A stretch of DNA of 63,128 nt, taken from assembly GCA_951800365.1 (NCBI GenBank), contig CATOJW010000019.1, positions 1-63,128 on the forward strand, written 5' to 3'. The DNA is from an uncultured Lachnospiraceae bacterium (GTDB lineage: Bacteria > Bacillota > Clostridia > Lachnospirales > Lachnospiraceae). Both the position numbers and the translations under genes were made by a program. Below are positions 3,420-56,990 of the stretch, piece by piece. The first letter of the stretch is position 1; each line of letters begins with the position of its first letter. Below the pieces are notes generated by a model. That model made no database searches and was not told the DNA's origin. It worked only from the letters and a program-made list of their open reading frames with translations.

Positions 3420-3596
3420 ACTGTCTCCTTTTTCTTCTCATCATAAATCCACTTCATTTTCTCTCAGCTATCACAACATCATAACTCCCGTCCTCTAAAT
3501 CAAAATACTCCAAATATAAAAAACTTTCCCTAATCTAACAACACACAATCAAAAATCTGCACAAATCAGGTGCTAAAAAATTATGTCAATCAGGTA

Positions 3597-3763
3597 CACA
3601 CAGCCGAAAGCCAAATGGGGTTCTATGCAGGGTCATCATTTCCCGTCGGCACTTAAGCACTGTGTTGCTGTATTTTAGTGCCTTATGTGTCCGCTATGAA
3701 AATAGGAAATGCTAAGCGCAAGCGAGCCCGGAGCAGACCCCCTTTTGGATTTCAGCGTTTCCC
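3597..3763 (+). repeat. Type C structured repeat, copy C2
   Basis: Same family as 161-319; ends 4 bp downstream of the pepD stop. Confidence 0.8.
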
Positions 3764-3766
3764 TTA

Positions 3767-5248
3767 TCATAATTTTTCCAGTACCTCCACCAAATACTCC
3801 CAAACCCGTGCCACAGAAGAAATACTCAACCGCTCCCGTGTAGTATGAATATCCTTTATATCTGGTCCAAAAGAAATCGCATCCAGCCTTGGGCATTTCT
3901 CTAAAAGAATCCCACACTCCAACCCAGCATGAATTGCCTGTACCAACGGTTCTTTTTTATACTTTTCTCTATAAATCTCTACTGCCGTTTCCCGCAGTTT
4001 TGAATCCGCCCGATACTCCCAAGCCGGATACTCTCCACGTGTCGTATATTCTCCCCCTAAAAACTCTGTCATCGAACGAAGCTGATTGCTCAGTGCCTCT
4101 TTTCGGCTTCCTACACTGCTTCGAACTGAAGCCGTAACCGTAAGTTTCTCCTGATCCAGCAATACAATCCCAAGATTTAAAGAAGTTTCCACCAATCCCG
4201 GAATGATTCTGCTCCAATTCTGCACCCCATTCGGCAGATTTGCCAGCAGATAAACAACATTCTTCTGACAAGACAAGTCAATCCTCTTTTCTATCCTACT
4301 ATCCCTTTTTCTCCACTCTATCCTAAGATTCGGATCAGAACATGCATACTCTGCCTGATAAACCGCCATCCGCTCCTGTAAAAGCTGCTCAAACTGCCCA
4401 GCATCTTCTGCCTTTACCAACAAAGAAAACGCACACTCCGCCGCAATCGCATTATCTTTTTCTCCGCCCTGCAGTTTACAAATTCCATAGGAAATCTTTT
4501 GCTCTAACTCCAAAAGCAAACGTCCCGTTAATTTTATCGCATTAGCACGCTCCTTGTCAATCTCAGAACCAGAATGTCCTCCTGTTAGTCCCGTCACCTT
4601 TATCTGATATAAAATCCCCTCTTCTTCCAGATAACGAACCGGAATAACCATATCCCCTCTTAAACCTCCTGCACAACTTGTTAAAAAAACACCCTCTTCT
4701 TCGGAATCCAAATTAATCAGATACTGTCCCTTTAGCATCGATAAATCAATGCCCGCTGCTCCTAAAAGTCCAATCTCTTCATCCACCGTCAGCACCACTT
4801 CCAAATGCGGATGAGAAAGGCTGTCATCTTCTAAAACTGCCAGTGCATAAGCAACCGCAATTCCGTCATCTCCTCCAAGACTTGTACCCTCCGCATAAAT
4901 TTCATCTCCATCCACTTTTAAACGCAGAGCATCCTTCGAAAAATCAATATCACAATCCTCATCCTTTACTGTTACCATATCCAAATGCCCCTGCAGAATA
5001 ATTCCATCATCCTGCTCTCTTCCTTTTGAAGCCTCTTTCATCAAAATAATATTATTCCAACTATCCTGTATATAAGAAAGTCCATGCTCTTTTGCAAATG
5101 CAACACAATAATCACTAATCGCTTTGGTATTTCCCGAACCATGCGGGATTTTTGAAATTTCTTCAAAATAATAAAATACTCGTTCCGGTTTTAATAATTC
5201 CAACAAAACAATACCTCCTTCAAAACATACTATATGTAATATTGACAC
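3767..5248 (-). CDS. pepD: Aminoacyl-histidine dipeptidase (PepD, M20C family)
   Basis: ERVFYYFEEISKIPHGSGN N-terminus, GHLDMV metal-binding region, about 490 aa. Confidence 0.75.
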   Translation of the reverse strand: MSILHIVCFEGGIVLLELLKPERVFYYFEEISKIPHGSGNTKAISDYCVAFAKEHGLSYIQDSWNNIILMKEASKGREQDDGIILQGHLDMVTVKDEDCDIDFSKDALRLKVDGDEIYAEGTSLGGDDGIAVAYALAVLEDDSLSHPHLEVVLTVDEEIGLLGAAGIDLSMLKGQYLINLDSEEEGVFLTSCAGGLRGDMVIPVRYLEEEGILYQIKVTGLTGGHSGSEIDKERANAIKLTGRLLLELEQKISYGICKLQGGEKDNAIAAECAFSLLVKAEDAGQFEQLLQERMAVYQAEYACSDPNLRIEWRKRDSRIEKRIDLSCQKNVVYLLANLPNGVQNWSRIIPGLVETSLNLGIVLLDQEKLTVTASVRSSVGSRKEALSNQLRSMTEFLGGEYTTRGEYPAWEYRADSKLRETAVEIYREKYKKEPLVQAIHAGLECGILLEKCPRLDAISFGPDIKDIHTTRERLSISSVARVWEYLVEVLEKL

Positions 5249-10815: not shown

Positions 10816-10870
10816 ATCACTATCTATATAAGTTTTACTTAATTCCTGAACATTTATAATTATTCTGTTC

Positions 10871-11033
10871 TTCTGCCAGAAATACACAGCCAAAATCCGA
10901 AGGAAGGTCTGCACAGGGTCATCATTTCCCGTCGGCACTTAGGCGCTGTGTTTTAGCGCCTTATGTGTCCGCTACGAGGAAATGCTAAGCGCAAGCGGAC
11001 CCGGAGCAGACCTTCCTTCGGATTTTAGCGTCC
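10871..11033 (+). repeat. Type C structured repeat, copy C4 (canonical)
   Basis: aaaatccgaaggaaggtctgc ... gcagaccttccttcggatttt arms; ggcgctgtgttttagcgcc hairpin; ends in TAGCGTCC. Confidence 0.85.
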
Positions 11034-11037
11034 TCTT

Positions 11038-11514
11038 CTATAGAATTACTTCCATTCCTATTTTTTGTGGCTTTAGACCACACGCTTCATAAAATTTTAT
11101 TGCCGATTCATTTAAACTCCATACATTTAAAGTTACATTATAACAGTAATTTTGTTTTGCAAATGCATAGACTGCCTGATATAGACTGCTGCCGATATGC
11201 TGTCCTCTTTGGTTTTCTTCTACACATAAATCATCAATATACAGTGTTTTAATATCAGTTAAAATATTATCGTTCTTATGCTGCTGAAAGATACAAAATG
11301 CATATCCTAAAATATTCTGATTCTCATCTGCTGCCACAAAAATTGGTCGCTGAGCATCACGGATAATCTCTTTTAACTGTTCATCTGTATATTTTTTTGC
11401 TCCATATCGGAATAAATCCGGTCTGCCTTTATGATGAACCAAACAAACCTGCATTAACAAACGATTAATTCCTTCCAAATCTCTTTCTTCTGCTCTTCTG
11501 ATTTCCATTATCAT
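11038..11514 (-). CDS. GNAT family N-acetyltransferase
   Basis: Acetyl-CoA binding motif region (QRGQHIGSSLY), 158 aa. Confidence 0.7.
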   Translation of the reverse strand: MIMEIRRAEERDLEGINRLLMQVCLVHHKGRPDLFRYGAKKYTDEQLKEIIRDAQRPIFVAADENQNILGYAFCIFQQHKNDNILTDIKTLYIDDLCVEENQRGQHIGSSLYQAVYAFAKQNYCYNVTLNVWSLNESAIKFYEACGLKPQKIGMEVIL

Positions 11515-12210: not shown

Positions 12211-12879
12211 TTAATCAAAACATTCTATTTTATCTGTATCCGCTTCCTTTTCATAAATTTGAATCATAGCATCAATTGAATCCACCACACTTACAATATG
12301 ATATTTTAACACAAACAAAGCATCTGCTTCATCTGGATACCTCTGCTTTATCTTTCGAAGAAGCGGAAGTACATACTGTCTGGTTTCTTCAATATATGCC
12401 TTTAACTTTTCCTTCGAAAAAGTTCCCGCCATACAAGAAACATTATGGCAGCGGTCAACCAATTTTGTAATAGCAGCCTCTCTGCTTTCCAAAATCCCAT
12501 TATAATAACGATTCTTGGCAATCTCTTTGGTTTCTCCTTCCATAACCCGAAATGTCATCAATGCTACACTGCGCCGCACAACATCATCCACCGGAAGTTC
12601 TTCTAAACTAATACCGCAATCCTCACAAACATCATGAAGCAGAATCGTTGCAATAATATTATCCTCCCGAATCCCGATACTTAATGCATTGCACGCCATA
12701 GTAAGCGGATGCACAATATAAGGTTCTCCTCCTTTCCGAGTCTGTCCCTCATGCTTGTCCCTTGCAAATGACAATGCCTTTAATGTCTGTGTCATCCCCG
12801 CCCCGGAAGCATAACCACGAATATAAGTATACATCTTCTCTGGATAAAACACGGTTCTTTCCATTTTTATCTCCTCCAT
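12211..12879 (-). CDS. HD domain phosphohydrolase
   Basis: H...HD motif (HPLTMACN...LLHDVCED). Confidence 0.65.
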
Positions 12880-13085
12880 TTTATTGTATCAACTGGTTCC
12901 TTCTCTACTCTTCCTGTTTAAAACTCTTCCCTTAACCCATACATAAGTCAAAGTTAAGACGAAAACTGCACGCTTCCCTCTCCATGCCAATACCAGTATA
13001 CACCTAAATAAGAAAAATGTCTTGTATTTATTTCTATAACTTTAATAAATTGGATAATGGAAGGAGAACACCAGAGGACGTCAGA

Positions 13086-13631
13086 GGACGCCAAATTCGA
13101 AAACAGTGAGCAGCCTGCTGTTCCAGTTTCCAAAAAGCAAGAAGTTCTAACTTTTTTCCAAAGTCACTGCAGGCTGCCCACTGTTTTCGAATCTGACTGT
13201 TTCTTGACTCCGAAACAAAAAAGAATGATGTCTAAACTTTACGGAAAACTTGCTCTGTAATAAAATATAACTTCTACTGTTATTCAGCCAACAGCGAGAG
13301 GCGGTTTGCTCCTGTCCTTTGCCAGCGACTTCGGAGAACGGTTAGAAAGTTTTGGGCTTCTGTTCGAAAACTTAGAATTTTTTGCATATCCTGCTTCCAT
13401 GCAGGGTATGCAAAAAAAGGGGCGTGTTTAGCCCGGAGAATAGAGAAGAGGCTGTTTTGTAGCTGGAAAAATTCTTCCTTACACCAATTATGTTTCGGCT
13501 GAAATGAGGGCGAATTGCGCCCCGGTTCGTCCGGTTGGATGAACCGAAATCAGAAGCCCTAGACTTTCTTACCGTTTGGAGCGGAGCAGGCAAAGGACAG
13601 GAGCAAACCGCCTCTGGCGTCCGGTGAAAGC
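13086..13631. repeat. Composite A/B structured repeat locus: core-less B arms (13086-13216), linker, then full A element (13290-13631)
   Basis: B arms ggacgccaaattcgaaaacagtgagcagcctgc / gcaggctgcccactgttttcgaatctg are joined directly with no core. The A element has 26-bp perfect terminal arms and a core with gcatatcctgc..gcagggtatgc and gggcgaattgcgccc hairpins. Confidence 0.85.
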
Positions 13632-13642
13632 ACCCCCTCATC

Positions 13643-14941
13643 CTATAAAATATCAATATATTCCCCTGCCAAAGCCTTGTTCATACTCCGCACAGCACAA
13701 AATTTTCCGCACATCGAACAAGTATCTTCCTGCTCCGGCTTTCGTTCTGCCCGAATCCTCTTTGCCGTTTCCGGATCAATCGCACATTCCCACTGTTTTT
13801 CCCAATCTAATTCCCTCCTTGCCTTTGCCATAGCATCGTCCTGTTCTCTAGCACCTCGAATCCCTTTTGCAATATCCGCCGCATGTGCTGCAATTCTCGA
13901 AGCAATCACTCCCTGTTTTACATCTTCTAAATTTGGCAGTGCCAAATGTTCTGCCGGTGTAACATAACAAAGAAAAGAAGCCCCGCAAGCCGCCGCCATC
14001 GCTCCGCCTATCGCCGCCGTAATATGATCATATCCCGGAGCAATATCCGTTACCAAAGGTCCTAATACATAAAAAGGCGCACCCATACAAATCGTCTGCT
14101 GAATTTTCATATTTGCAGCAATCTGATCCATTGGCATATGTCCCGGTCCTTCTACCATAACCTGTACATCCCTCTCCCACGCCCGTTTTGTCAATTCCCC
14201 CAACTTTACCAATTCTTCTATCTGGCAGACATCCGAAGCATCCGCAAGGCATCCCGGTCGGCAGGCATCACCAAGGGAAATCGTTACATCATATTCCCGG
14301 CAAATCTCTAAAATTTCATCATAATACTGATAAAACGGATTCTCCTCTCCTGTCATGCACATCCATGCAAAAACCAAAGAACCTCCCCGTGAAACCAAAT
14401 TCATCTTTCGTTTATGATTTCGAATCTGCTCTATTGTTTTTCTGGTAATTCCACAGTGCAAAGTGACAAAATCTACTCCGTTTTCCGCATGAAGCCGAAT
14501 CACATCTAAAAAATCTTTTGCACTTAATTCTGCCAAATCTCTTTGATAATGAATTACTGCATCATAAACCGGAACCGTACCTATCATAATCGGACACTCC
14601 GCCGTCAATTTTTTTCGAAACGGCTGTGTATCTCCATGAGAAGACAAATCCATAATCGAATGTGCCCCCATAGAAACCGCTTCCAATACTTTTTTCATCT
14701 CTGTATCATAATCTTTACAATCTCTTGACACACCAAGATTTACATTGATTTTTGTACGAAGCATCGAACCGATTCCCTCTGGTTCTAAACAACTATGATT
14801 TTTATTTGCACAAATCACCACTTTTCCCTCTGCTACAAGCGGCATTAACTCTTCTGCTGTCATTCTTTCCTTTTCGGCAACTATTTTCAACTGCTCCGTT
14901 ACGATTCCTTTCCGTGCTGCTTCCATTTGCGTTGTATACAT
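13643..14941 (-). CDS. thiC: Phosphomethylpyrimidine synthase
   Basis: Full-length ThiC with C-terminal [12 protein letters not shown] cluster motif. Confidence 0.95.
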
Positions 14942-17300: not shown

Positions 17301-17404
17301 TTCAGTTCCTCCTTCTTCTCACTTAGAAACATAAATTTGCCAAATTTTATTCTATTTTAACATACACAACAGTACCCCATTTTCTGGCGTCCTTCCTAAT
17401 TACA

Positions 17405-19101: not shown

Positions 19102-19250
19102 AATGAAAAACGATTTCCTTATTTTTTCCCAGTTTACAGTTTATACTTCTTGAAAAATTCAAGAAATTACAGTTTATACATTTGATTGTTCCAAGCTGTT
19201 TTCTCAACTTGTTCTAGTAACATGGTCTTTCGCTCCTTTCCTTAAAAATA

Positions 19251-19964
19251 TTAGAAATCATTCTCTTTTTCCTTCTCCATTTCTTTTTCCAGTTCTATGC
19301 AAATGTCTTCTTTTACTTTTTTTCGTAGTCCATACAATTTTCCAGAGAAAGAACGGATAATCGAGAGGATATCCTCTGCAAGTTCTTCTGACATTGTTTT
19401 ATCTTCTGTTTCTGTACTTACAACTACGATTTCTGTTTTATGGAAATCACAGATTAGCTGCAAGTAATGAAAACCAAACCGAGTCAGCCTGTCTTTGTAA
19501 TTGATAAAAATACGGGCTATTTTATCCTCTTGGACTAACGTAATCAATTTCGTTAATCCTTTACGGGTATCATTTAAACCACTTCCTACTTCCGATATAA
19601 TTTCTAAATCCTTTGGATTTTGCGTGATTGCAAACCGTGCTATATTTTGTATTTGTCTTTCTAAATCGCCTCTGTTTTTTTGTTTATGCGTAGAAACTCT
19701 TGCATAAATAATATCTTTTCGATTAGTTTCTGTTTCCACATAAAGTTGTTTGTTTTTTAAAAAAGCAATCAGAGAATCTTTCGGAATCAAGCGTCTTTTA
19801 TTCACAAAAATTTCTGAAAGTAAACCATGGATACAATAATTCTGTATTGTTCTTGTACTAACTCCAATCATTTTGGCTACTTCCCCACTTTTGTAATATT
19901 CTTTGGTCAAATCTGTATCCTTTACCATATCGTCACACCAACTTTCATAATGGTATGATATCAC
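19251..19964 (-). mobile_element. IS607-family serine recombinase/transposase (MerR-like HTH + resolvase domain), solo orfA
   Basis: N-terminal MerR-type HTH (EVAKMIGVSTRTIQNY) and catalytic YARVSTHKQ serine-recombinase motif; no tnpB adjacent. Confidence 0.7.
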
Positions 19965-20176
19965 AACTATGAAAGAAAATCAAGTGTTAATTTCTTAAAA
20001 TTCTTTATTATCAGTGGATCTTTCTTTGGATTCCTGCGTCCGGCATGGCAATAGATTTTAGAACAAATGCCCCAAACCATGGTATCTTTACTTTGGCAGA
20101 TATTTTACCAAATTTCTTAATACCATACTTTGAGGCATTCATCCTTTATTTCCTTACTCTTATTTGTAACTTTTGA

Positions 20177-37599: not shown

Positions 37600-38051
37600 C
37601 CGGACACCAAAGATAATTTGCTTTCACCGGACGCCAGAAGCGGGGGGCTCCTTTCCTCTGGCTGTTGATTAGCTCAAGGCAGAAAGATAAGATTTTTTTC
37701 GTTCCGGGGTCAGAAAACAGCCAGATTCGAAAACGGTGAACCGCCTGCAGTGACTTTGGAGAAAAGTTAGAAGTTCTTGACTTCTGCTCAAAAACCTAAG
37801 ATTTTTTTCACATACTGCTTTCATGCAGTGTGTGAAAAAAAAGGAGCGTGTTTAGCCCGCATATGTTTAAGGAAGCGATTGTTTTATGGCAGATAGAATC
37901 ATCTGAAACGCCAATTTCGTTCTGGCTGCCATGCGGGCGAATTGCGCTCCGGTCTGTCCGGTCAGAAAAATAGAACGGCAGAAGTCTAGAACTTCTTACT
38001 TTTTGGAAATCGGAACAGCAGGCGGTTCACCGTTTTCGAATCTAGCGTCCT
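37600..38051. repeat. Composite repeat: degenerate A arms, then linker, then full B element (arms ggtgaaccgcctg / caggcggttcacc)
   Basis: The B core hairpin variant cacatactgc..gcagtgtgtg has a compensatory change relative to cacatcctgc..gcagggtgtg. Confidence 0.85.
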
Positions 38052-38058
38052 CCTATTT

Positions 38059-40797
38059 CTATTTCAAAAACTCCCACGCCTCAAATACCTTCTCTGCAAT
38101 CAAAGCCGCCTTATTTCCTCCAGCTCCTCCTTCCTCTACAATTACACTTACCACAATCTCCGGTGCTTCTGCCGGCACAAATCCGACAAACCAAGAATGT
38201 GCCTCCTTTTCTGGATTCCATTCTGCCGTACCTGTTTTTCCTGCTACCTGATAATTATCTAAAGCAGCACGATACCCTGTTCCCTCTGTTACACACAATG
38301 TCATCCATTCTGTTATCTGCTGTGCCTCTTCTTTGGTCATTGGCACACTATAATCCTGCGGCTGATATTTTTTCACCAAATTTCCATGTGCATCCGTAAT
38401 GGCATCTGCCAGATAAGGTTTCCTCATCACTCCGTCATTTGCAACAGCAGATACCACCATAGCCAAATGAAGCGGTGTCATCTCCACTGTACCCTGCCCG
38501 ATTACCGTCTGTAAAATTTCCCATGACGATGACTCCTCTGTCATATGAAACCGACTCGATACATAAGACAAAGGAAACGGCAAATCCTGATTAAATAAAA
38601 AATCTTCACAAAGAGCAGTAAAACGTTCTGGCGAAAGTTCTGAACCAATATCAGCAAACGCTCCATTGCAAGACTTCGCAAATGCCATTTCAAAAGAAAG
38701 TATTCCGTGAGCATTTTGATGATAACATTGGATTGCACCTTTCTGATCTTTTTGATACCAGTAAAAGCCCTTGCAGTCATAAGAAAATTTAGAAATTTCT
38801 TCGGGATACTCCCTTAGATACTCTAATGCTGTTAAAATCTTAAAAGTAGATCCGGGCGGATAGCGTCCCTGTGTCGCACGATTTAACAGATAACTCTGAT
38901 GTTTTTCTTCTTCGTTTGAAAGAGATTCCCAGATTTCCTCGATTTGATTGGGATCATAATCTGGTTTTGAAACCATAGCAAGAATTTTCCCAGTAGCCGG
39001 TTCTATCACCACAACTGCTCCCGTTTCTCCTTCCAACGCCTCAAAAGCCGCTGTCTGAAGTGTATAATTTAAAGTTGTTATCAACCGATTTCCTTCATCC
39101 TTTTCTTCTTTCAGCTTATTGGCAATCTTTTCATAGACAGGAAGATCCGAGGTCAAAAGCTGAAAATTATAAACTTTTTCTAACCCGTCTTTACCACTCT
39201 GAGAATACCCTGCCACATGGGAAAACAAATTTCCAAACGGATATACTCTTATTTCCGTTCCGTCCTCTTTTTTCTGTGTTTCTGCTATTACTCGATTATC
39301 TGCCGTATAGATTGTACCACGAATCACCTTTTTTGCAAAATTTTCCTGTCTTAAATTATAAGGATTGTTAATAATTTCCCTGCTTTCTGTAAAAAGAAAA
39401 TACCCAAGATAACATGGCATTAAAACAAACAGTCCTGTAAACAGATACATTACCAAATACAATTCCCGATTTCCTGCCGCCTTATTTTCTATACTGCTCT
39501 CCTCTTTTTTTTGCATACGAGTATCTGCTTCCGAAATATAAAGCCCCTGTATAATTCCATACATCACCAAGGAACTTAACATCGAACTTCCTCCATAACT
39601 GACAAACGGAATGGTTACTCCGGTAGAAGGAATCAGCTTCATTGCTCCTCCAATCGTTAAAAATACCTGTATTCCATACTCACAGGCAAGCCCAAGTGCC
39701 ATATAGCGGTAAAAATTGCTGTGCATTTGAAGTGCAATATTTAGAATTAAAAGCAGACATCCTAAACAGATTAAAATCACACAGATCGCAGTTAAACCTC
39801 CCAATTCCTCAGAAATCGCCGAAAAAATAAAATCCTCTTCTACTACCGGAATCTGTGAAGGAGATCCCTGATTTAATCCCACTCCCAGCCATCCTCCTGT
39901 TCCGATGGCAAAAAGTGACTGCGCAATCTGATATCCCTTGCTCTCAATCACTGACCAAGGATCTAACCATGCCGTTACCCGAGTCTGGATATGAGAAAAC
40001 ATCTGATAGGCAATATAAGAAGCCCCTGCTCCTGCAAACAATCCTCCAAACAGATAAATTGGTTTTTTTGTAGCTGCATAAACCATAAATACAAACACCA
40101 ACGAAAAGATCAACGCACTTCCCAAATCAGTAGAAGCCACTAAAATCAAAATATGCATCGCTGCCAAAAATCCTGTTTTTATCACCTGTTTTATATCACT
40201 TCTTACTTCAAACATAGCAGCAATAAAAAATACATAGCTGATTTTTACAAACTCGGAAGGCTGAAACGAAATACCCAGCAGTGCAATCGAAAGTTTTGCA
40301 CCATAACTGGTTTCCGCTAAAATCAAAACTACAGAAAGCAAAAGCACTCCGGCAACACCATAAAGCCATGCAAATTTTCTTAATGCTTTCCATTTTTTCA
40401 TAATAAACGGAATTACAAACATAAAAACCGTTCCGACAAAAAGAATAAAAAACTGTTTACTTGCCTTTACACTAGAAAGTCTTGCCAGCATAAGAAACCC
40501 TATCACCATCAGCATACAAACAAGACTTGTAAATAATTTCGAACCCTCTGGATAAATCATAGAAAATAACGTTTCTAATAAAATCAAATAGACGAGTTCT
40601 GCCCCATACAATAAAATCAGGTTTTCATTTCCTGTAGATAAAAATAAAGATAAAAAACCAAGAAAATGTACAGAAAATAAACAAATATTTAAAACTGCTA
40701 TTTTTTTCTTTCTATAATAAGCAAAAGAATAATACGTATATATCATTGTCAGCAGGATGATTAAATATTTTGAAAGTTCCTGTATTAGATTTTCCAT
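38059..40797 (-). CDS. SEDS glycosyltransferase (FtsW/RodA/SpoVE family) fused to class B penicillin-binding protein transpeptidase
   Basis: N-terminal about 420 aa with 10 TM helices and SEDS motifs. C-terminal bPBP with STFK, SCN and KTGT active-site motifs. Confidence 0.8.
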   Translation of the reverse strand: MENLIQELSKYLIILLTMIYTYYSFAYYRKKKIAVLNICLFSVHFLGFLSLFLSTGNENLILLYGAELVYLILLETLFSMIYPEGSKLFTSLVCMLMVIGFLMLARLSSVKASKQFFILFVGTVFMFVIPFIMKKWKALRKFAWLYGVAGVLLLSVVLILAETSYGAKLSIALLGISFQPSEFVKISYVFFIAAMFEVRSDIKQVIKTGFLAAMHILILVASTDLGSALIFSLVFVFMVYAATKKPIYLFGGLFAGAGASYIAYQMFSHIQTRVTAWLDPWSVIESKGYQIAQSLFAIGTGGWLGVGLNQGSPSQIPVVEEDFIFSAISEELGGLTAICVILICLGCLLLILNIALQMHSNFYRYMALGLACEYGIQVFLTIGGAMKLIPSTGVTIPFVSYGGSSMLSSLVMYGIIQGLYISEADTRMQKKEESSIENKAAGNRELYLVMYLFTGLFVLMPCYLGYFLFTESREIINNPYNLRQENFAKKVIRGTIYTADNRVIAETQKKEDGTEIRVYPFGNLFSHVAGYSQSGKDGLEKVYNFQLLTSDLPVYEKIANKLKEEKDEGNRLITTLNYTLQTAAFEALEGETGAVVVIEPATGKILAMVSKPDYDPNQIEEIWESLSNEEEKHQSYLLNRATQGRYPPGSTFKILTALEYLREYPEEISKFSYDCKGFYWYQKDQKGAIQCYHQNAHGILSFEMAFAKSCNGAFADIGSELSPERFTALCEDFLFNQDLPFPLSYVSSRFHMTEESSSWEILQTVIGQGTVEMTPLHLAMVVSAVANDGVMRKPYLADAITDAHGNLVKKYQPQDYSVPMTKEEAQQITEWMTLCVTEGTGYRAALDNYQVAGKTGTAEWNPEKEAHSWFVGFVPAEAPEIVVSVIVEEGGAGGNKAALIAEKVFEAWEFLK

Positions 40798-43724: not shown

Positions 43725-44510
43725 TGATAGAGGACGTCAGATTCGAAAACGGTGGGCAGCCTGCTGTTCCGGTTTCCAAAAAGCAAGAAGTTCTAAGACT
43801 TCTGCCGTTTTATGCATCCAACCGGACAGACCGGGGCGCAATTCGCCCTCATTACAACCAAAACAAAACGGGTGTAAGGAAGGATTTTACCAACCATAAG
43901 ACGACTTCTTTCCTATCATCCGGGCTAAACACGCCCCTTTTTTTTCACACCCTGCATAGAAGCAGGATGTGAAAAAAATCTTAGGTTTTCGAGCAGAAGT
44001 CCAAGAACTTCTAACTTTTTTCCAAAGTCACTGCAGGCTGCCCACCATTTTCGAATCTGACTGTTTCTTGACTCCGAAACAAAAAAAGATACTCATCCAA
44101 GTTTTTCTTAAACCTATCCTGATGCAAAACTAACCAAAGTAATGAAATAGATTTCTGCCGCTATCCAACTAACAGCGAGAGGCGGTGGGCTCGTTTCCTT
44201 TGTCTGTGACTTCGGAGAACGGTTAGAAAGTCTTAGGCTTCTGCGGAAACACCTAGAATTTTTTGCATATCCTGCTTCCATGCAGGGTATGCAAAAAAAG
44301 GGGCGTGTTTAGCCCGGATAATAGGGAAGAGGATGTTTTATGGCTGATAAAATCTTTCCTTACACTCATTGTGTTTCGGCTTTAATGAGGGCGAATTGCG
44401 CCCCGGTTCGTCCGGTTAGATGCACATAGACAGAAGCCATAGACTTTCTTACCGTTTGGAGCGGAACAGACAAAGGAAACGAGCCCACCGCCTCTTGCGT
44501 CCGGTGACAT
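43725..44510. repeat. Composite repeat in reversed arrangement: B element (minus, 43725-44095), linker, A element (plus, 44180-44510)
   Basis: A arms gaggcggtgggctcgtttcctttgtct / agacaaaggaaacgagcccaccgcctc covary relative to other copies. The B arm contains a T·G-compatible pair. Confidence 0.9.
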
Positions 44511-47207: not shown

Positions 47208-47263
47208 ACCTGTTTCCTATTCCAATTTAAAATAAACGCTGACACATCTGCTGTTATCCAATC

Positions 47264-47497
47264 AACAGCCAGAGGCGGTTTGCCCAATTCCTTTGACTGC
47301 AACTTCGGAGAATGGCTAGAAAGTCTTTGGCTTCTGTGGAGATACCTAGAATTTTTTGTACATCCTGCTTCCATGCAGGGTGTGCAAAAAAAGGGGCGTG
47401 TTTAATTGCGCCCCGGTTCGTCTGGTTGGATGTACGCAGATACAGAAGCTGTAGACTTTCTTACCATTCAGAGCAAAGCAAGCAGAGGGACGCCCAG
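47264..47497 (+). repeat. A element with internal deletion of the middle of the core
   Basis: Has the arms and the gtacatcctgcttccatgcagggtgtgc hairpin, but about 110 bp of core between gcgtgttta and attgcgcccc is missing. Confidence 0.8.
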
Positions 47498-47668
47498 ACT
47501 TTTCGTAAATTTTTGTTACTTCTTTTGCTTCTAATAGTGTACTCATAATACAATCTCCTTTTTTATTTTTCTGTTATATAATACTGCTATAAACAAAAAA
47601 ATAAATGAGTAATTCCAGCATATTTTTTACATAATTTACTCAATTAAAAATACTGGTAAACTTAATTT

Positions 47669-47775
47669 AGGGGGACGCTGGAATTGAAAAGAAGATCTAT
47701 TTAGGATCTGCTTTCGCTTAGCATTTCTGATGACCCTTCATAGACCTTCTTTCCAATTCCAGCTATTTCTATCAG
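47669..47775 (-). repeat. Truncated type C repeat, copy C5 (arms only)
   Basis: gggggacgctggaattgaaaagaagatctat ... atagaccttctttccaattccagc; lies 33 bp downstream of the oxidoreductase stop. Confidence 0.65.
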
Positions 47776-47807
47776 CCTCAAATAATAACGTCCTTTCTGA
47801 AAAATAT

Positions 47808-50089: not shown

Positions 50090-50465
50090 ATTGGATTTCA
50101 CCGGACGCAAGAGGCGGTTGAATAGCGGTAGAAATCATGTTTTATTACAGAGTAGATTTTTAGAAAAATTTAGATACAATTCTTTTTTTGTTTCGGCATC
50201 AAAAAACAGCCTGATTCGAAAACAATAGACAGCCTGCAGTGACTTTGAAAAAAAGTTAGAAGTTCTTGACTTCTGCTCGAAAGCCTAAGATTTTTTTCAC
50301 ATCCTGCTTCCATGCAGGGTGTGAAAAAAAAGGGTTGTGTTTAGCCCATGTAATAAAAAAGAGGTTGTCTTATGGTTGGTAAAATCTCCCCTTACACCAA
50401 CTTCGTTTCGACTGCAGTGAGGGCGAATTGCACCCCGGTCTGTCGGCTGTCTATTGTTTTCGAAT
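50090..50465. repeat. Composite repeat: A stub, then linker, then B element with shortened right arm
   Basis: B arms cgaaaacaatagacagcctg / ctgtctattgttttcg are a unique but complementary variant. Confidence 0.85.
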
Positions 50466-50612
50466 CTGGCGTCCTCTTAAATTCCAAAAGCCTAATCAAA
50501 GTTATTATTATTATAATTTTTCAAAAAATTTCCACTTTAAATTAAAAATTTAGTATTAAGTTTTTATTATAAATATTTACAACAAATTTCACCCCTGCTC
50601 TATTTTCCGGCA

Positions 50613-50782
50613 AAAATACACAGCCAAAATCCGAAGGAAGGTCTGCAAAGGGTCATCATTTCCCGTCAGCACTTAGGCACGGTCTTGCTGTGTTTTCGTG
50701 CCTTATGTGTCCGCTATGAAAATAGGAAATGCTAAGCCCAAACGGGCTCGGTGCAAACCTTCCTTCGGATTTTGGCGTCCCC
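50613..50782 (+). repeat. Type C structured repeat, copy C6
   Basis: Inner hairpin variant ggcacg..cgtgcc; ends 3 bp from the GerKA stop. Confidence 0.8.
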
Positions 50783-50784
50783 TA

Positions 50785-52212
50785 CTATTTATTTTCAGTT
50801 TTAGGCAAACTAATCCGTACAAATCGCCGCAAAAACTCCCGTCCATTAAAAGGGAAAAGAGGATAAAGATAACTTTTTCCAGAAAGTGTCCGATTCTGAC
50901 AAACGCAAAAAATCGTAAACAACACTCCAAAGATATACCCCCAAACATTAAATATCTGCGTAAGCAACAAAGTAATCAACCGCATAAATTTCAATGCAAA
51001 ACCCAATTCAAAGCTCGGCTGCGAATAATTTGCCAATACCACAAATGCCATATAAAGCATCGCTTCCGAATTAAACCATCCAGACTGCACAGCATAATCT
51101 CCCAGCACCAATCCGGCAATTACGCTTAAAGGAGTACTAAGCATATTCGGTGTATTTACTGCTGCAAGACGAAGCCCATCAATCGCAAATTCCAAAATAA
51201 TCAACTGCCAGATCAAAGGAACTTGTATCTCCTCAGCCGGAAAGATAAAAGCCAGCCATTCGGGAACCCACTCTGGATTCCTCATCAAAAGCAGCCACGT
51301 AGGCGTCAATATCCATGTCAACAGCGTAATCATAAACCGTGCCAATCGAAGATAAGTCCCAGTCACAGGAGGAAAATAATAATCATCCGCTTCTTCCAAA
51401 ATATCAAACACCGAACAAGGCAAAATCATAGCAGAAGGCGAATTATCCACCAAAATAGCAATTCCGCCCTCTAATATAGAAGCCGCTGCTGTATCCGGGC
51501 GTTCCGTATATTTATATTTCGGAAACGGATTCCACCACCCTCTTTTATAAAGACACTCTGCCAAACTCTCCTGATTCATTGTCAGTGCATCAATATCAAT
51601 CTCATTAATTCGCCGAATCAAGTCTTTTAAAAACTGCTGATCGACTCGATCTCTCATATAACAAACCGCAATATCCGTTTTTGAAGCACGCCCCACAGTA
51701 TACATCTCATTCGTAAGCTCTGTACTGCGAATCCGTCTGCGAATCAATGCCGTATTAAACACCACCGTTTCTACAAAACCGTCCCGAGACCCCCGCATTA
51801 CTCTGTCCTTTTCCGGTTCTTCTACTCCCCTTGCCGGATAATCCCTGCAATCAATTAAATAAGCCTCTGGATACCCTTCTATAAACATAGCTACCACACC
51901 AGAAAGCACATTTTTTACAATAGTATCCTCTTCTTTATTCATTTCCACTTGCAGATAAGACAAATATTTCTCAGAAAACTTATTTGCATCCTGCGGCATA
52001 TCCTCTTCCTTAATACTAACAAAAGAAGAAGTTATCTTCTGCATAATATCATCTTTCACAAAACCATTCAGAAAAAAATACGCCGCTTCCCGACCACCAA
52101 CCAAAAATTTCCAATACAATACATCAAAACTATCCTCTGTACGTAAAAGCTGCTTCATCCGCTCAAAGGTATTTTGAAAATCCGTTTGGTTTGTTCTATC
52201 CATTTTTCTCAC
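50785..52212 (-). CDS. Spore germination protein, GerA/GerKA family
   Basis: RVMRGSRDGFVETVVFNTALIRRRIR signature plus C-terminal multi-TM domain. Confidence 0.8.
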   Translation of the reverse strand: MRKMDRTNQTDFQNTFERMKQLLRTEDSFDVLYWKFLVGGREAAYFFLNGFVKDDIMQKITSSFVSIKEEDMPQDANKFSEKYLSYLQVEMNKEEDTIVKNVLSGVVAMFIEGYPEAYLIDCRDYPARGVEEPEKDRVMRGSRDGFVETVVFNTALIRRRIRSTELTNEMYTVGRASKTDIAVCYMRDRVDQQFLKDLIRRINEIDIDALTMNQESLAECLYKRGWWNPFPKYKYTERPDTAAASILEGGIAILVDNSPSAMILPCSVFDILEEADDYYFPPVTGTYLRLARFMITLLTWILTPTWLLLMRNPEWVPEWLAFIFPAEEIQVPLIWQLIILEFAIDGLRLAAVNTPNMLSTPLSVIAGLVLGDYAVQSGWFNSEAMLYMAFVVLANYSQPSFELGFALKFMRLITLLLTQIFNVWGYIFGVLFTIFCVCQNRTLSGKSYLYPLFPFNGREFLRRFVRISLPKTENK

Positions 52213-53070: not shown

Positions 53071-53274
53071 AATTAATTTTACCTCTCACCTTCCATTTTT
53101 TAAACTGCCACAAAAACAATTTTCCCGGATTCCCCTTCTATTTTTTGTTTAACAATTTCCCCGATCTCTCTTTCTTCCTCTTAATAGTTTATCACCAATT
53201 CCCGTTTTCCACAACCTTATTTTTACATTTTCCTTAATTAGGCTTTTAAAAATAGGTTGACGGAAAAGAAATTG

Positions 53275-54212
53275 CTTTCACCGGACGCAAGAGGCGGTTT
53301 GCTCCTTTTCTTTGCTTGCTCCGCTCTCCGAACGGTAAGAAAGTCTAAGGCTTCTGTATCTAAGCACATCCAACCGGACGAACCGGGGCGCAATTCGCCC
53401 TCACCACAGCCGAAACCCAACAAATGTAAGGAAAGATTTTATCAGCCATAAAACATTCCCTTCCCCATCATCCGGGCTAAACACGCCCCTTTTTTTGCAT
53501 ACCCTGCATGGAAGCAGGATATGCAAAAAATTCTAGGTGTTCCCACAGAAGCCAGACTTTCTAACCATTCTCCGAAGTCGCCGACAAAGAAAAGGAGCAA
53601 ACCGCCTCTCGCTGTTAATCGGATCACGGAAAAAATTATAAAAAATTATATTTTGTCACTTTATTCTATAAGTCAAAATTAATTTTATCTTCCAGTAAAA
53701 TAAGTACAAATTTTGCAGTAATCTTTTATTAGATGACAATAATTTTCCTGAATCATATAAAATAAAAGATTTCTAAATCCATATCCTTTCTCTGCTATAT
53801 TTAAAAATTTTTAAAACTCTTATGAAATACAAAAGTTTGGAATAAAATTCTTCTTTGTTTCGGAGTCAAGAAACAGCCAGATTCGAAAACCGTGAACCGC
53901 CTGCAGTGACTTTGGAGAAAAGTTAGAAGTTCTTGACTTCTGCTTAAAAACATAAGATTTTTTTCACATACTGCTTCCATGCAGTGTGTGAAAAAAAAGG
54001 AGCGTGTTTAGCTCGCATATGTTTTGGAAAGCGATTGTTTTGTGGCAGATAAAACCTTTTGGTATATCAATTTCGTTTTGGCTGCCATGCGAGCGAATTG
54101 CGCTCCGGTCTGTCCGGTTGGATGTAGCCTCAATGCAGAAGTCTTAGAACTTCTTACTTTTTGGAAACGTGGAACAGCAGGCGGTTCACGGTTTTCGAAT
54201 CTGGCGTCCCCC
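53275..54212. repeat. Composite repeat: A element (minus, 53275-53612), expanded 250-bp AT-rich linker, B element (plus, 53862-54212)
   Basis: A arms gctccttttctttg / caaagaaaaggagc are a variant. B arms aaaaccgtgaaccgcctg / caggcggttcacggtttt. Confidence 0.85.
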
Positions 54213-54225
54213 TCCCCCAAAAATT

Positions 54226-55737
54226 TTAAACCCCTATATCACTATCTGCCTCAAACCAAAATTCTACCCCATTTTCCAAATTCCGCACCCCATACTCCTT
54301 ATGATGTGCCTCCATAATTGCCTTTACAATCGAAAGCCCTATCCCGCTCCCTCCATATTCTCTTGTCCTTGCCTTATCCACCTTATAAAATTTAATCCAC
54401 ACTTTATCCAAATCCTCTTCTGGAATCCGATTCCCCGTATTAAAAACACAAACCCGCACCGTATGCTCATTTTTTACCAAAGAAACCACTATCTTTTTTT
54501 CATTTGCTGCATAATGAATGGCATTACTGATATAATTCGTAATCACTTCCTCTATCTGATACTCATCTCCCCATACAAAAACTGGCTCTTTCTGCTTTAA
54601 TTCCACCGTAATCTGATTCTGCCGACACAAAATCTCAACTGACTGTATTACTCCGGCAAGCAAAGCCGTTATATCAAATCGCTCCATTGCAATCTGATCC
54701 TGTCCAAACTCAAGCTGATTTAAAGTCAAAAGTTTTTTTACCATCTTATTCATCTTATTTGCTTCATCCATAATCACTTCACAATAAAACTCCCTGCTCT
54801 GTGCATCCTCATTAATCTCCTCCGCAAGTCCCTCTGCATACCCTTGAATCAATGCAATCGGTGTCTTTAATTCATGTGACACATTTGATAAAAATTCCTT
54901 CCGCATTTCATCTACCTGAATCTTTTGTTCTATATCTTTTTGAAGCTCATTATTTGCCGATTTTAGCTCGGAAATCGTACTCTCCAATTTCTTAGAAAGT
55001 TCATTCATACTCTGTCCAAGAACCCCAATCTCATCCTTATCATGCCTCTCATACTTTGCCTCAAAATCCAAATTAGACATTTTACGGGATAACTCTGCCA
55101 ATTCCATCAAAGGCTGAACCAAACGCCGAGTCATCGCTGTAGAAATCAAAATCGCAAGCACACTTACCACTACTCCCACATATGCCACAAAACGATTTGA
55201 AATATCTACACTTTCCCGAATACTCTCCAAAGGAATCCGAAGTAGCATATATTCCCGCATATTCGGCTCTACCCCATAAAGTTCCAAAAAAGCAGTAGAA
55301 AACCGATTATCTTCATTCCGAAAAATACTATAATTCTCCTCCTGCTTCAAAGTAACTGCATTATTATCAATCCCAAACAAATAAGGCATAACCAAATCCT
55401 GCAGTGTCTGTGCCTTATTTACATTATAATAAATCGGCTTTAACACCCCCGTATTCGCATCCAAAATAATATAAGTAATATTTGACTTTTGACACAGCCC
55501 CTCCAATTCCAGCGCCACCTCATCCGTCCTTTTATTACTCTGCACCAATTCACACATACTAAAATACACATTCTCCAACTTTGTCTGCTTACTAATCAAA
55601 TAATACCCCTCCAAAAACCGATTATTAATAAACAAAAGCAAACAAATTGTCCCAGTTGTCGCAAACAAAAGCAGCACAATAATCTTCATCCGAATCGAGT
55701 GCTGCGTCCTCTCTGCAATTTCCCTTATTCTCTTCAT
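54226..55737 (-). CDS. Sensor histidine kinase (TM-HAMP-HisKA-HATPase)
   Basis: SNVSHELKTPIALIQGY H-box; N, G1 and G2 boxes (GGSGIGLSIV). Confidence 0.85.
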   Translation of the reverse strand: MKRIREIAERTQHSIRMKIIVLLLFATTGTICLLLFINNRFLEGYYLISKQTKLENVYFSMCELVQSNKRTDEVALELEGLCQKSNITYIILDANTGVLKPIYYNVNKAQTLQDLVMPYLFGIDNNAVTLKQEENYSIFRNEDNRFSTAFLELYGVEPNMREYMLLRIPLESIRESVDISNRFVAYVGVVVSVLAILISTAMTRRLVQPLMELAELSRKMSNLDFEAKYERHDKDEIGVLGQSMNELSKKLESTISELKSANNELQKDIEQKIQVDEMRKEFLSNVSHELKTPIALIQGYAEGLAEEINEDAQSREFYCEVIMDEANKMNKMVKKLLTLNQLEFGQDQIAMERFDITALLAGVIQSVEILCRQNQITVELKQKEPVFVWGDEYQIEEVITNYISNAIHYAANEKKIVVSLVKNEHTVRVCVFNTGNRIPEEDLDKVWIKFYKVDKARTREYGGSGIGLSIVKAIMEAHHKEYGVRNLENGVEFWFEADSDIGV

Positions 55738-55829
55738 TCCTTCACCTTATATCCTTCTTTAAACACAAAAAGACAAAAAAACACTTATTAACCATCACCC
55801 TTTCCCACTTTTGAAGATAGGATAGTGGC

Positions 55830-56290
55830 TTTCACCGGATGCGAAAAGCGGTTTGCTCCTCGCTGTTGGTTAAATAGCAGTAGAAATAATATTTTATTAC
55901 AGAACAAATTTTCCGCAAAATTTGGATCCCATTCTTTTTTTATTCCGGTGTCAAAAAACAGCCAGATTCGAAAACGGTAGGCAGCCTGCAGTAACTTTGG
56001 AAAAAAGTTAGAAGTTCTTAGACTTCTGCTCGAAAACCTAAGATTTTTTTCACATCCTGCTTCCATGCAGGGTGTGAAAAAAAAGGGGTGTGTTTAGCCC
56101 GGATAATAGGGAAGAAGATGTTTTACGACTGGTAACATCCTTCTTTACACCAATTCCGCTTCGGCTGAAAGGAGGGCGAATTGCACCCCGGTCTGTCTGG
56201 TTGGGTGCACAAAGATACAGAAGTCTTAGAACTTCTTACTTTTTGGAAACCGGAACAGCAGGCTGCCTACCGTTTTCGAATCTGGCGTCC
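55830..56290. repeat. Composite repeat (A stub, linker, full B) inserted between the response-regulator and histidine-kinase genes
   Basis: B arms ggtaggcagcctg / caggctgcctacc; fills the 578-bp RR-HK spacer. Confidence 0.85.
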
Positions 56291-56315
56291 CCCTTCGAAC
56301 TTCTAGTATCCCACT

Positions 56316-56990
56316 TCACACCTCAAATTTATACCCCATCCCCCAAATCGTCTTAATATACTCCCCCTTCTCCCCCATCTTACTCCGAAGTTTCTTTACA
56401 TGTGTATCTATCGTCCGGGCATCCCCAAAATAATCATAATTCCAAACATGATTCAAAATCTTCTCCCGTGATAAAGCCAGCCCCTGATTCTCAATAAAAT
56501 AAGTAAGCAGCTCAAACTCCTTAAAACTTAACTCCACATCTTCTCCATCAATCGTAACCTTATGAGCTGCCTTATCTAAACAAATCCCCCCTACCTCAAT
56601 TACCTCATCCATATTCAGTTTATTTGCCCGCCGCAAAATCGCTTCCACTCTAGCCACTAAAATCTTTGGACTAAACGGCTTTGAAATATATTCATCCACC
56701 CCCAGTTCAAATCCCAGCAGTTCGTCCCGTTCATCTCCCTTTGCCGTCAGCATAATAATCGGCACTTTTGAATATTTCCGAACTTCCCGGCAGACCTGCC
56801 AGCCATCCATTTTTGGCATCATTACATCCAAAATCAACAAAGCAATTTCCTTTTCCTGAAAAAAAATATCAATCGCTTCTTCTCCGTTTTCTGCCTCTAA
56901 TACCTCAAAATTCTTTTTTACCAAAAAATCCCGCACCAATTTTCTCATTCTGCTTTCATCATCAATTACCAGAACTTTTAATTTATCCAT
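56316..56990 (-). CDS. OmpR-family response regulator
   Basis: Receiver domain (VLVIDDE...D...K) plus winged-helix domain (WGMGYKF). Confidence 0.9.
   Translation of the reverse strand: MDKLKVLVIDDESRMRKLVRDFLVKKNFEVLEAENGEEAIDIFFQEKEIALLILDVMMPKMDGWQVCREVRKYSKVPIIMLTAKGDERDELLGFELGVDEYISKPFSPKILVARVEAILRRANKLNMDEVIEVGGICLDKAAHKVTIDGEDVELSFKEFELLTYFIENQGLALSREKILNHVWNYDYFGDARTIDTHVKKLRSKMGEKGEYIKTIWGMGYKFEV

Follow-up and report, generated by a model that had tools for sequence, protein, structure and literature searches.

Paired, strand-polarised foldback repeats in an uncultured Lachnospiraceae genome and their possible REP/REPIN-like spread

In the stretch of uncultured Lachnospiraceae DNA analysed here (63,128 nucleotides (nt); contig CATOJW010000019.1 of assembly GCA_951800365.1, hereafter 'the window'), a 760-nt spacer separates two minus-strand genes encoding an HD-domain protein (12211-12879) and ThiC (13643-14941). 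Within this spacer, the segment 13255-13640 contains three nested inverted repeats: a 33-nt pair with 94% complementarity (13294-13326 with 13586-13618), a second pair at 13337-13362 with 13551-13576, and a 17-bp hairpin at 13378-13394 with 13401-13417. An initial annotation of the site proposed a functional RNA or foldback structure whose repeat arms covary between copies. The plus-strand interval 13281-13625 is one module, termed A1, of an interspersed repeat of approximately 350 nt. The three inverted repeats form its outer variable stem (P1), a second stem (P2) and a hairpin in which a T·G pair is kept (P3), all read on the plus strand, as are a fourth helix, P4 (13419-13426/13431-13434 with 13508-13511/13516-13523), which surrounds a variable insert of about 75 nt, and a small hairpin, CCGGTTCGTCCGG, at 13522-13534. 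Also on the plus strand are a 5' tag, ACAGCGAGA (13291-13299), and a 3' tag, TCTGGCGTCC (13613-13622), with a tail, GGTGAAAGC, reaching to about 13631. A1 forms a doublet (doublet 1) with a module on the opposite strand, B1 (13084-13226, minus strand), across a linker at 13227-13280; the core of B1 has been deleted, and its P1 and P2 arms remain as a 30-bp hairpin.

All the arm sequences that the initial annotation had quoted were found by an alignment of 14 copies from the window and a repeat scan. They are perfectly complementary within each copy, with the exception of the pair ggtgggcagcctg/caggatgcccacc, which has a G·A mismatch. The interval to which they had been assigned, 13290-13631, contains A1 only, and the other arm pairs are located elsewhere in the window, at 33486-34270, 37691-38053, 43729-44507, 50157-50476, 53273-54215, 55931-56299 and 59945-60309. 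Folded as RNA, the plus strand of A1 has a predicted free energy of -184.3 kcal/mol (z = -13.7) and the minus strand -158.3 kcal/mol; with DNA parameters, the values are -96.6 and -87.6, respectively. No family in Rfam 15 matches the element at the gathering threshold, which is passed in the whole window only by a tmRNA, a TPP riboswitch and two tRNAs, and permissive searching gives only hairpin-like microRNA noise. A known RNA family was therefore rejected as the identity of the modules.

Fifteen modules or fragments were found in the window with blastn and nhmmer, amounting to about 5.3 kb, or approximately 8% of its length. They are of two types, A and B, which have a core about 80% identical and unrelated outer arms. 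A core-motif scan of one genome per species found at least 117 loci, nearly all from two uncultured Lachnospiraceae metagenome-assembled genomes (MAGs); the window represents a third genome, related to both, and the total sampled is about 0.85 Mb, biased toward 8-kb blocks that contain elements. Across the window and the 117 loci listed, 265 nhmmer hits merge into 233 elements, including 124 distinct near-full copies. One MAG lineage carries only a short form of about 260 nt without the distal P4. The window is identical to ENA metagenome contigs and shows synteny with only one, L110, of the 117 loci listed. Metagenome contigs provide seven further real matches to the family. No match to the modules was found in viral, phage and plasmid collections, and an origin from phages or plasmids was rejected on this basis.

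The modules are typically arranged as doublets. In 64 of the 65 neighbouring element pairs less than 700 nt apart, the two elements are head to head with their GCGTCC tags on the outside; among these 64 there are 43 A/B, four B/B and two A/A pairs. The linker type is associated with both the A and the B subtype, and the A-A and B-B distances are correlated over 30 doublets (Mantel r = 0.40, reached by none of 2000 permutations). The partner modules have thus diverged together, which implies that doublets of about 800 bp are often copied as units. The heterotypic arms plausibly avoid the near-perfect palindrome of about 750 bp that an A/A or B/B pair would form, and a similar argument is made for REP heterodimers in a published survey (PMC3733652). 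Many linkers have a common AT-rich block containing only weak promoter-like hexamers, TTGCGG-N16-TAAAAT toward A and TTGGTT-N16-TATATT toward B. The linker has been lost in about one third of doublets, and in the sister lineage with the short form the linkers are unrelated and 70-580 nt long. A scan for sigma-70 sites scored none in the element or linker of doublet 2. Of the features expected of an independent RNA gene, neither a conserved promoter ahead of the modules nor a terminator or defined 3' end beyond them was found.

The elements are intergenic among ordinary genes, such as those for ThiC, QueH, NUDIX, RodA-PBP, ZapA, RuvAB, GerA and SufCB. Their outer termini lie at a median of 54 nt from the stop codon that they face, with 41 of 92 within 40 nt, while those facing a start codon lie at a median of 163 nt and never within 40 nt. 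A and B modules occupy either side equally.

The common fold predicted by RNAalifold from the 124 distinct copies has 84 pairs in six helices. In this consensus, P1 is a 28-bp outer stem, separated by an internal loop from P2, a conserved imperfect stem with approximately 23 pairs over 27 positions. A junction carries P3, the 'core hairpin' of the initial annotation; P4 pairs GGGGCGUG..GCCC with GGGC..UGCG-CCCC around a variable insert of about 85 nt, and a small P5 is also predicted. Standard pairs occupy 98.7% of cells, compared with 84.3% in 500 shuffled alignments, none of which reached the observed value, and 44-52% when partners were slid; double changes occur in 51 of the 84 pairs (32 when shuffled, 22-25 when slid) and the covariation score is 0.401 (0.139 shuffled, at most 0.114 slid), these cell counts overstating the number of independent events because the copies are related. 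The covariation that had been noticed within the window therefore exceeds all shuffle and slide controls in the 124 copies, which supports the proposal that base pairing itself is under selection, and 'foldback structure' was the correct label.

Double changes affect 26 of the 28 pairs of P1, which is hypervariable and almost never unpaired: pair 27/360, for example, is UA in 52 copies, GC in 45, CG in 14, AU in 10 and GU in three, and is broken in none. In P3, pair 115/148 is GC in 73 copies and UA in 47, pair 118/144 is UA in 62 and CG in 57, and pair 121/141 is CG in 99, AU in 18 and GU in six. The change from gcatatcctgc/gcagggtatgc to cacatactgc/gcagtgtgtg that had been described in this hairpin comprises three paired substitutions and is seen throughout the family, while the T·G said to be kept there (pair 120/142) is U·G in 115 of the 124 copies, C-G in six and U-A in three. 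A core pair whose partners are 110 nt apart, 159/273, also covaries (GC 102, AU 14, UA 8). Specific wobbles, mismatches and bulges are kept in 115-123 of the 124 copies, and because these imperfections persist a simple palindrome correction does not appear to be operating. Half of the stem singletons (24 of 48) are already compensated within the same copy, and the density of singletons per column is 0.29 in stems and 0.36-0.45 in unpaired parts.

One step in the earlier argument fails, namely that transposition of a master copy cannot give rise to compensatory pairs, as compensatory changes are common in mobile hairpin repeats. They are found in REPINs (PMC3116915), and for tagged REPs both G·T pairs and alternative complementary stems are reported (PMC3733652). 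Three more specific interpretations of the fold were dropped. P3 is not an intrinsic terminator, since on both strands it has its T run 5' and its A run 3' (T6-stem-A7) and these runs pair together; a terminator scan called none in the element or linker, and no stem is followed by a U tract. A kink-turn or UUCG tetraloop in the internal loop between P1 and P2 appeared by eye to be non-canonical and is not conserved between A and B. A guide-like role for the variable arms was rejected because the longest matches between P1 arms and the outside flanks have a mean of 4.6, against 4.8 with permuted flanks.

Each module has a sense strand, 5'-ACAGCC...GGCGTCC-3', that folds better than its complement in 122 of the 124 copies. 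With the conserved wobble columns left out, sporadic G·U cells outnumber A·C cells by 164 to 42 on this strand, and the excess is present in each type read in its own sense (A 65:16, B 99:26). As A and B are always oppositely oriented, a chromosomal mutational strand bias cannot explain this excess. Where the flanking genes are co-directional, the ratio is 57:4 in modules co-oriented with them and 48:16 in anti-oriented modules (Fisher p = 0.0065); the polarity is read as an intrinsic bias in both orientation classes with an added, context-dependent mutational component. The module on the stop-codon side would be antisense in a read-through mRNA yet keeps the bias of its own sense, so the fold under selection is not that of the host mRNA. 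Full modules are anti-oriented to genes in 45 cases and co-oriented in 30, a difference estimated not to be significant.

The strand asymmetry that the initial annotation had drawn from the retained wobble is thus real and general, and the sense strand does read outward from the linker, in both halves of the doublet and in both gene orientations. The accompanying claim of divergent transcription from the linker is not supported: no sigma-70-like site was scored in it, its hexamers are weak, it is often lost and is unconserved in the sister lineage, and no terminator follows the module. G·T is the best-tolerated mismatch in DNA, and for this reason the wobble bias does not decide between DNA and RNA.

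The tags extend beyond the A and B modules. The heptamer GGACGCC occurs 21 times in the window, against an expectation of 2.05, and is almost always at the end of an element. The tags are common to A, B, C-type and mini elements, whose hairpin bodies are unrelated. The C-type family, of about 190 nt, has 77 hits in 49 loci, a different body, a covarying outer stem and a weak G·U asymmetry; its tag points at the stop codon of a convergent open reading frame (ORF) in 41 of 51 copies and lies within 10 nt of it in 15. These tags tend strongly to sit 2-30 nt from the convergent gene's stop codon. One C-type element in the window, at 10864-11047 (plus strand), has the tags 5'-ACAGCC...GCGTCC-3', its tag abutting such a stop codon, and further copies lie at 142-331, 3577-3774 and 50598-50794 (plus strand) and at 47672-47790 (minus strand). 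Mini hairpins and 'solo' tags also occur, and the mini hairpin at 27770-27822 (minus strand), with the same tags (GGACGCCAGA...TCTGGCTGTT), is an internal-deletion derivative of a B module. That unrelated hairpins have only about 10 unpaired or basal nucleotides in common suggests a single trans-acting reader of tag and helix.

Occupancy differs between lineages. The spacer between the PBP and NUDIX genes is 591 nt in the lineage of the window, where it contains a doublet, and 98-111 nt in relatives without one. The spacer between the M32 and QueH genes contains a short-form element in one lineage and none in the window or a third lineage, while a site downstream of a conserved gene is filled in L110 and empty at the equivalent position of the window. 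Within the species of the window, hairpins are lost. L130, a strain of the same species, lacks exactly the hairpin of module B7 (55931-56299, plus strand), and the junction falls within a pair of imperfect direct repeats of 9 nt, GACGCCAGA/GACACCGGA, that flank the base of the hairpin. Strain L156 lacks both hairpins of the last doublet, A7 (62805-63128, minus strand, cut by the window end) and its B partner, with one junction at GACGCCAGA/GACGCCGGA and the other at an AGG microhomology. Since the crossover point varies and the repeats are imperfect, these differences are read as deletions by slippage or recombination across DNA hairpins, rather than as fresh insertions.

A fragments and solo tags of the same form are found in the window at 37619-37664 (minus strand, hairpin deleted; the partner of B3), 50096-50150 (minus strand; the partner of B5), 55828-55902 (minus strand; the partner of B7, between a response-regulator and a histidine-kinase gene), 23930-23990 (minus strand) and 17383-17392. 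The fourth of these is a fully collapsed doublet, in which a solo tag, GGGGGGACGCCAGA, is joined to ACAGAAAAAG and followed by the A tail ATCTCCAAAAGCCTAATTAAAG. Intact hairpins are thus continually lost, which implies that they are replenished. No target-site duplications were found, the direct repeats at the base being imperfect and intrinsic to the element.

The reading favoured here, with about even confidence, is that the modules are non-autonomous mobile foldback elements resembling repetitive extragenic palindromic (REP) sequences and REPINs, which pass through a single-stranded intermediate that would be DNA rather than RNA. The outward-reading strand of each module would fold on itself for propagation, and the folded strand would be recognised at the hairpin base and tags by a structure-specific enzyme acting in trans, the best guess for which is an HUH/Y1-type or recombinase-type enzyme acting on single-stranded DNA. 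Selection would then operate during mobilisation: lineages that keep pairing would keep multiplying, accumulating compensatory changes and tolerating G·T but not A·C on that strand. Inserted copies are not protected: long hairpins are repeatedly deleted by slippage between short direct repeats at their base, which leaves solo tags and fragments. Single-stranded DNA is favoured as the intermediate because of the mobile-DNA behaviour of the repeats, the hairpin-stimulated deletions, the very long near-perfect helices and the lack of a consistent promoter or terminator.

Several results weigh against this reading. No mobilising enzyme was found in about 1 Mb of loci. A tblastn search of these with an IS200 TnpA query gave a sole Y1 match, a 134-amino-acid IS200/IS605 TnpA-like protein at L107 1103-1507 (minus strand; E = 3 × 10-10). 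It was rejected as the mobiliser because both key catalytic residues are substituted, the first His of the HUH motif by Tyr and the catalytic Tyr by Phe; it is possibly a domesticated, inactive transposase, and its gene overlaps an alpha/beta-hydrolase-like gene by 4 nt. Two paralogous TnpB-like genes (L004 3437-4798 and L105 3197-4519), in which only the Cas12f1-like TNB domain scores, lie about 240 nt downstream of the family's most divergent doublets and upstream of a glycosyltransferase-like gene; they have their own upstream region and were judged to be coincidental. A recent insertion that had duplicated its target or could be matched to an unambiguous empty site was not seen, and the two aligned within-species polymorphisms are better interpreted as deletions. 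The G·U bias is present in both modules of a doublet, although a doublet travelling whole as a single DNA strand would place just one of the two in the favoured polarity; the shared polarity needs independent mobility of the modules, folding at the 3' terminus of each strand, or RNA. Under an IS200/IS605-like model, moreover, the active strand should be found on the lagging-strand template, that is, co-oriented, whereas the full modules are 30 co-oriented to 45 anti-oriented and about 80% of C-type copies (41 of 51) are anti-oriented. The G·U excess and the branched conserved core also fit RNA equally well.

A parent element was likewise not apparent: split nhmmer hits enclosing an ORF were sought, and none of the 265 hits represents an ORF-bearing relative. 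The only interrupted copy is an A module at L007 5340-6680, with a 1.3-kb insert that has 16-bp terminal inverted repeats of its own (CATACGCACCAACTT...) and no intact ORF, and is unrelated; the copy around it has many 1-nt deletions, perhaps assembly errors. The only multi-copy ORFs in the approximately 0.85 Mb are spurious ones inside repeats, and the modules have no ORF. A similarity of the ends to those of Tn3-type elements (GGGG...ACGAAAAC), noted by eye, was dropped because its CGAAAAC part lies in the variable arm.

An alternative that seems possible, if on balance unlikely, is that the modules are structured-RNA genes, or mobile copies of such genes, transcribed outward from weak divergent promoters in the linker and acting in trans or in cis, as the leader of the downstream gene, as antisense to the 3' end of the upstream gene or as the intermediate of RNA-mediated copying. 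Divergent transcription explains most simply the sense G·U excess in both doublet halves, and the stronger sense fold (-184 against -158 kcal/mol), the branched core with its conserved internal loops and covarying long-range pair, and the AT-rich block of many linkers with its readable but weak hexamers all point the same way, while the lack of a terminator in the modules in either direction would make read-through possible. However, the doublet 2 linker scored no sigma-70-like site, about a third of doublets have no linker to hold a promoter and the short-form linkers are unrelated, nothing past the tag resembles a terminator or defined 3' end, and no Rfam family matches. The near-perfect 28- and 27-bp duplexes would be substrates for RNase III and are atypical of functional bacterial RNAs. 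The copy number in the hundreds, the frequency of deletion derivatives and the losses between strains also count against RNA, and a reverse transcriptase was not noticed in the vicinity of the copies. A related idea, unlikely though far from negligible, is that a mobility system of Firmicutes not described before is involved: either a mobile structured RNA, transcribed outward and recopied into DNA or serving as a guide or scaffold, or a new class of single-strand hairpin transposon, whose enzyme could read only the tags ACAGCC/GCGTCC and the helix geometry and so drive A, B and C-type bodies to about 8% of the genome.

Two explanations remain. It is improbable that the hairpins are cis-acting elements of host mRNA, retained at each locus for stabilising or ending the transcript of the upstream gene or for shielding adjacent genes from one another, a role that has been suggested for REP sequences, even though 41 of 92 stop-facing termini are within 40 nt of the stop codon and none is that close to a start codon, C-type tags come within 10 nt of a stop codon in 15 of 51 cases, and sites are found between housekeeping genes and even inside a response-regulator/kinase pair. 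The stop-side module would be antisense in the read-through mRNA yet has its own-sense G·U excess (48:16), no stem is followed by a U tract, strains of the species can do without individual hairpins, relatives have orthologous sites that are empty, and the density of singletons is only mildly lower in stems than elsewhere. Still less probable is a palindrome maintained purely at the DNA level by unselected hairpin-templated correction, through quasipalindrome template switching or intra-element gene conversion. One-step conversion would account for the 24 of 48 stem singletons compensated in the same copy; in addition, many double changes are transversion pairs without a wobble intermediate, the hairpin-stimulated deletions show that DNA hairpins form in vivo, and the correction of quasipalindromes by template switching is established as a mutational process in bacteria (PMC7202029). 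Yet such correction is strand-blind, whereas one strand has an excess of G·T over A·C of about 4:1 whichever the orientation, and it would remove the wobbles, mismatches and bulges that are kept in nearly all copies; the shared unpaired tags, the strict head-to-head arrangement of A and B and the spread to hundreds of sites are left unexplained.

REPINs, which are mobilised by RAYT, join two REPs in inverted orientation; their ends are invariant, their middle varies with compensating changes, and a hairpin in single-stranded DNA or mRNA has been proposed for them (PMC3116915). The present repeats resemble them in being interspersed extragenic palindromes arranged as inverted doublets with conserved ends and a compensated middle, in having singlets that are decayed remnants of doublets, and in that the proposed single-stranded intermediate has a defined polarity. 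They differ in scale, as REPINs of about 70-150 nt are built from REPs of 20-40 nt, whereas the halves here are branched, about 350 nt long and have a stem of 55 bp or more within a doublet of about 800 nt, a size some tenfold that of any REPIN described; the two halves also fold separately because their outer arms differ. REPINs are found in Proteobacteria and the host here belongs to the Firmicutes; no gene for RAYT, the Y1/HUH transposase that in REP-RAYT systems is typically flanked by the repeats, was found in the loci searched (about 1 Mb), and there is no 5' GTAG by the stem as in REP-RAYT systems, the tags being 5'-ACAGCC and GCGTCC-3'.

Parallels also come from tagged REPs, which, according to the survey by Di Nocera et al. 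2013, have an unpaired tag at one end, form dimers with the tags outside that are often heterodimers with conserved spacers, and lie downstream of ORFs, the CGTC class having no known transposase (PMC3733652). As in the CGTC- and GTAG-tagged classes described there, the present elements have an unpaired tag, a stem varying by complementary changes with G·T pairs, and head-to-head dimers, often heterodimers, that carry their tags on the outside and lie downstream of ORFs where the neighbouring genes are co-directional or convergent; the tag itself contains CGTC (GGCGTCC). In that account, CGTC REPs have a stem of 8-9 bp that opens with A-T pairs, a loop of 4-5 nt and a short tail resembling CCA, in contrast to the stems of 28 and 27 bp and the structured interior of about 250 nt here, and it describes no families from Firmicutes (PMC3733652). 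In the modules, the better-folding strand has the CGTC-containing tag at its 3' end and the other tag, ACAGCC, at its 5' end. The tag of CGTC REPs reportedly lies 5', going by the Neisseria dRS3 repeat.

Like miniature inverted-repeat transposable elements (MITEs) and foldback elements, the repeats are non-coding, intergenic and multi-copy; they have long inverted repeats and deletion derivatives, and their occupancy varies between strains. The bcr repeats of the Bacillus cereus group are also said to have predicted stable structures with compensatory changes. Unlike MITEs, no target-site duplication and no cognate insertion sequence (IS) with matching ends were found, and while the terminal repeats of MITEs are conserved because the transposase reads their sequence, only about 10 nt at each end are conserved here and the adjacent 20 bp vary freely. 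In the ends of IS200/IS605 elements and the attC sites of integrons it is structure and not sequence that is recognised, as it would be in the modules, the mismatches of imperfect hairpins setting strand choice and strand-specific activity. In the former, however, tnpA/tnpB is flanked by two small hairpins that are separate and lie on one strand, the latter are 60-150 nt long and flank cassettes in one orientation, and neither forms head-to-head doublets of 350-nt modules. We think that the modules probably work like REPINs and tagged REPs, but do not file them as members of either group because of their scale, the tags at both ends, the 3' position of the CGTC tag, the host phylum and the failure to find RAYT.

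If this interpretation is correct, the REP/REPIN principle of hairpins read by structure and free in sequence would extend to Firmicutes and to a branched, two-level palindrome ten times larger. The family also supplies over 200 naturally occurring variants of a single fold whose polarity is clear, a ready resource in the search for whatever enzyme or process reads the fold. A caution is that, where the sequences compared are copies of an element that replicates, strong covariation alone is not enough to recognise an RNA gene. A practical consequence of repeats that occupy about 8% of the window is that metagenome assemblies from this gut clade are interrupted at them. Numerous MAG contigs stop within modules, and contigs L127, L128 and L129, from other samples, have an identical RuvB gene with neighbours that switch inside or exactly at the end of doublet 4 (43729-44507), which reflects either recombination between repeat copies or metagenome misassembly.

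The other modules of the window vary in completeness. Doublet 2 consists of the full-length modules A2 (33486-33862, minus strand), the tail of which (...ATCTCCAAAAGCCTAATGAAAG) reaches to about 33455, and B2 (33875-34270, plus strand). The tag of B3 (37691-38053, plus strand) begins 8 nt past the RodA-PBP stop codon, and this site is empty in related lineages. Doublet 4 comprises B4 (43729-44112, minus strand) and A3 (44139-44507, plus strand), the latter adjoining the RuvB stop codon. A4 (47244-47495, plus strand) is solitary and has lost P4 and the distal insert. The ribosome-binding site and beginning of an ABC-ATPase-like ORF (MSTLLEAKEVTKIYEKSGRP...; 47530-47600, minus strand) run into the 3' tag of A4, and the gene has been cut off at the end of the element. 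B5 (50157-50476, plus strand) lacks the 3' half of P2 and the junction. In doublet 6, A5 (53273-53624, minus strand) and B6 (53828-54215, plus strand) are separated by an AT-rich linker of about 200 nt, and the B6 tag is 17 nt from a histidine-kinase stop codon. Doublet 8 has a linker of about 340 nt between A6 (59268-59602, minus strand), a divergent copy, and B8 (59945-60309, plus strand), one P1 arm of which is strongly diverged yet fully complementary.

The response-regulator/histidine-kinase pair at 54226-56990 is split by a doublet spacer of 578 nt, which is 241 nt in L130; with no obvious promoter before it, the kinase is presumably expressed by read-through across the hairpin. In the region of the window around 37016-38059, the NUDIX gene and its promoter are about 96% identical between L137/L138 and L142 and the adjacent PBP gene about 74%, and this step in identity suggests a boundary of recombination or transfer near the element site.

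Tandem arrays of two to four copies of the terminal 10-mer TCTGGCGTCC, or of a longer C-rich unit, are found at many module ends, as at the ends of B modules at L066, L026, L014 and L016 and at L012; the 10-mer is also repeated in tandem beside B1, at 13070-13092. The number of repeats varies between strains, L137 having one unit of about 38 nt more than L144 (4040-4190). These arrays may have arisen by slippage at the hairpin base or be a footprint of the mobility reaction. A recurrent motif, TTTATAAGTTTATCCTG, is found just outside module tails at several loci unrelated to one another, L090, L057, L016, L076, L006, L036 and L104, and is possibly the end of another repeat. Tandem repeats of a different kind include about eight 66-bp units at 20230-20757, inside an ORF of 1086 amino acids (20177-23437), within a block of genes (approximately 19250-25100) that is missing between the orthologous flanking genes in L110. 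In L110 itself, three tandem units of about 66 nt lie between a short-form module and the promoter of a TPP riboswitch (4760-4960), and these are absent from the orthologous spacer of the window.

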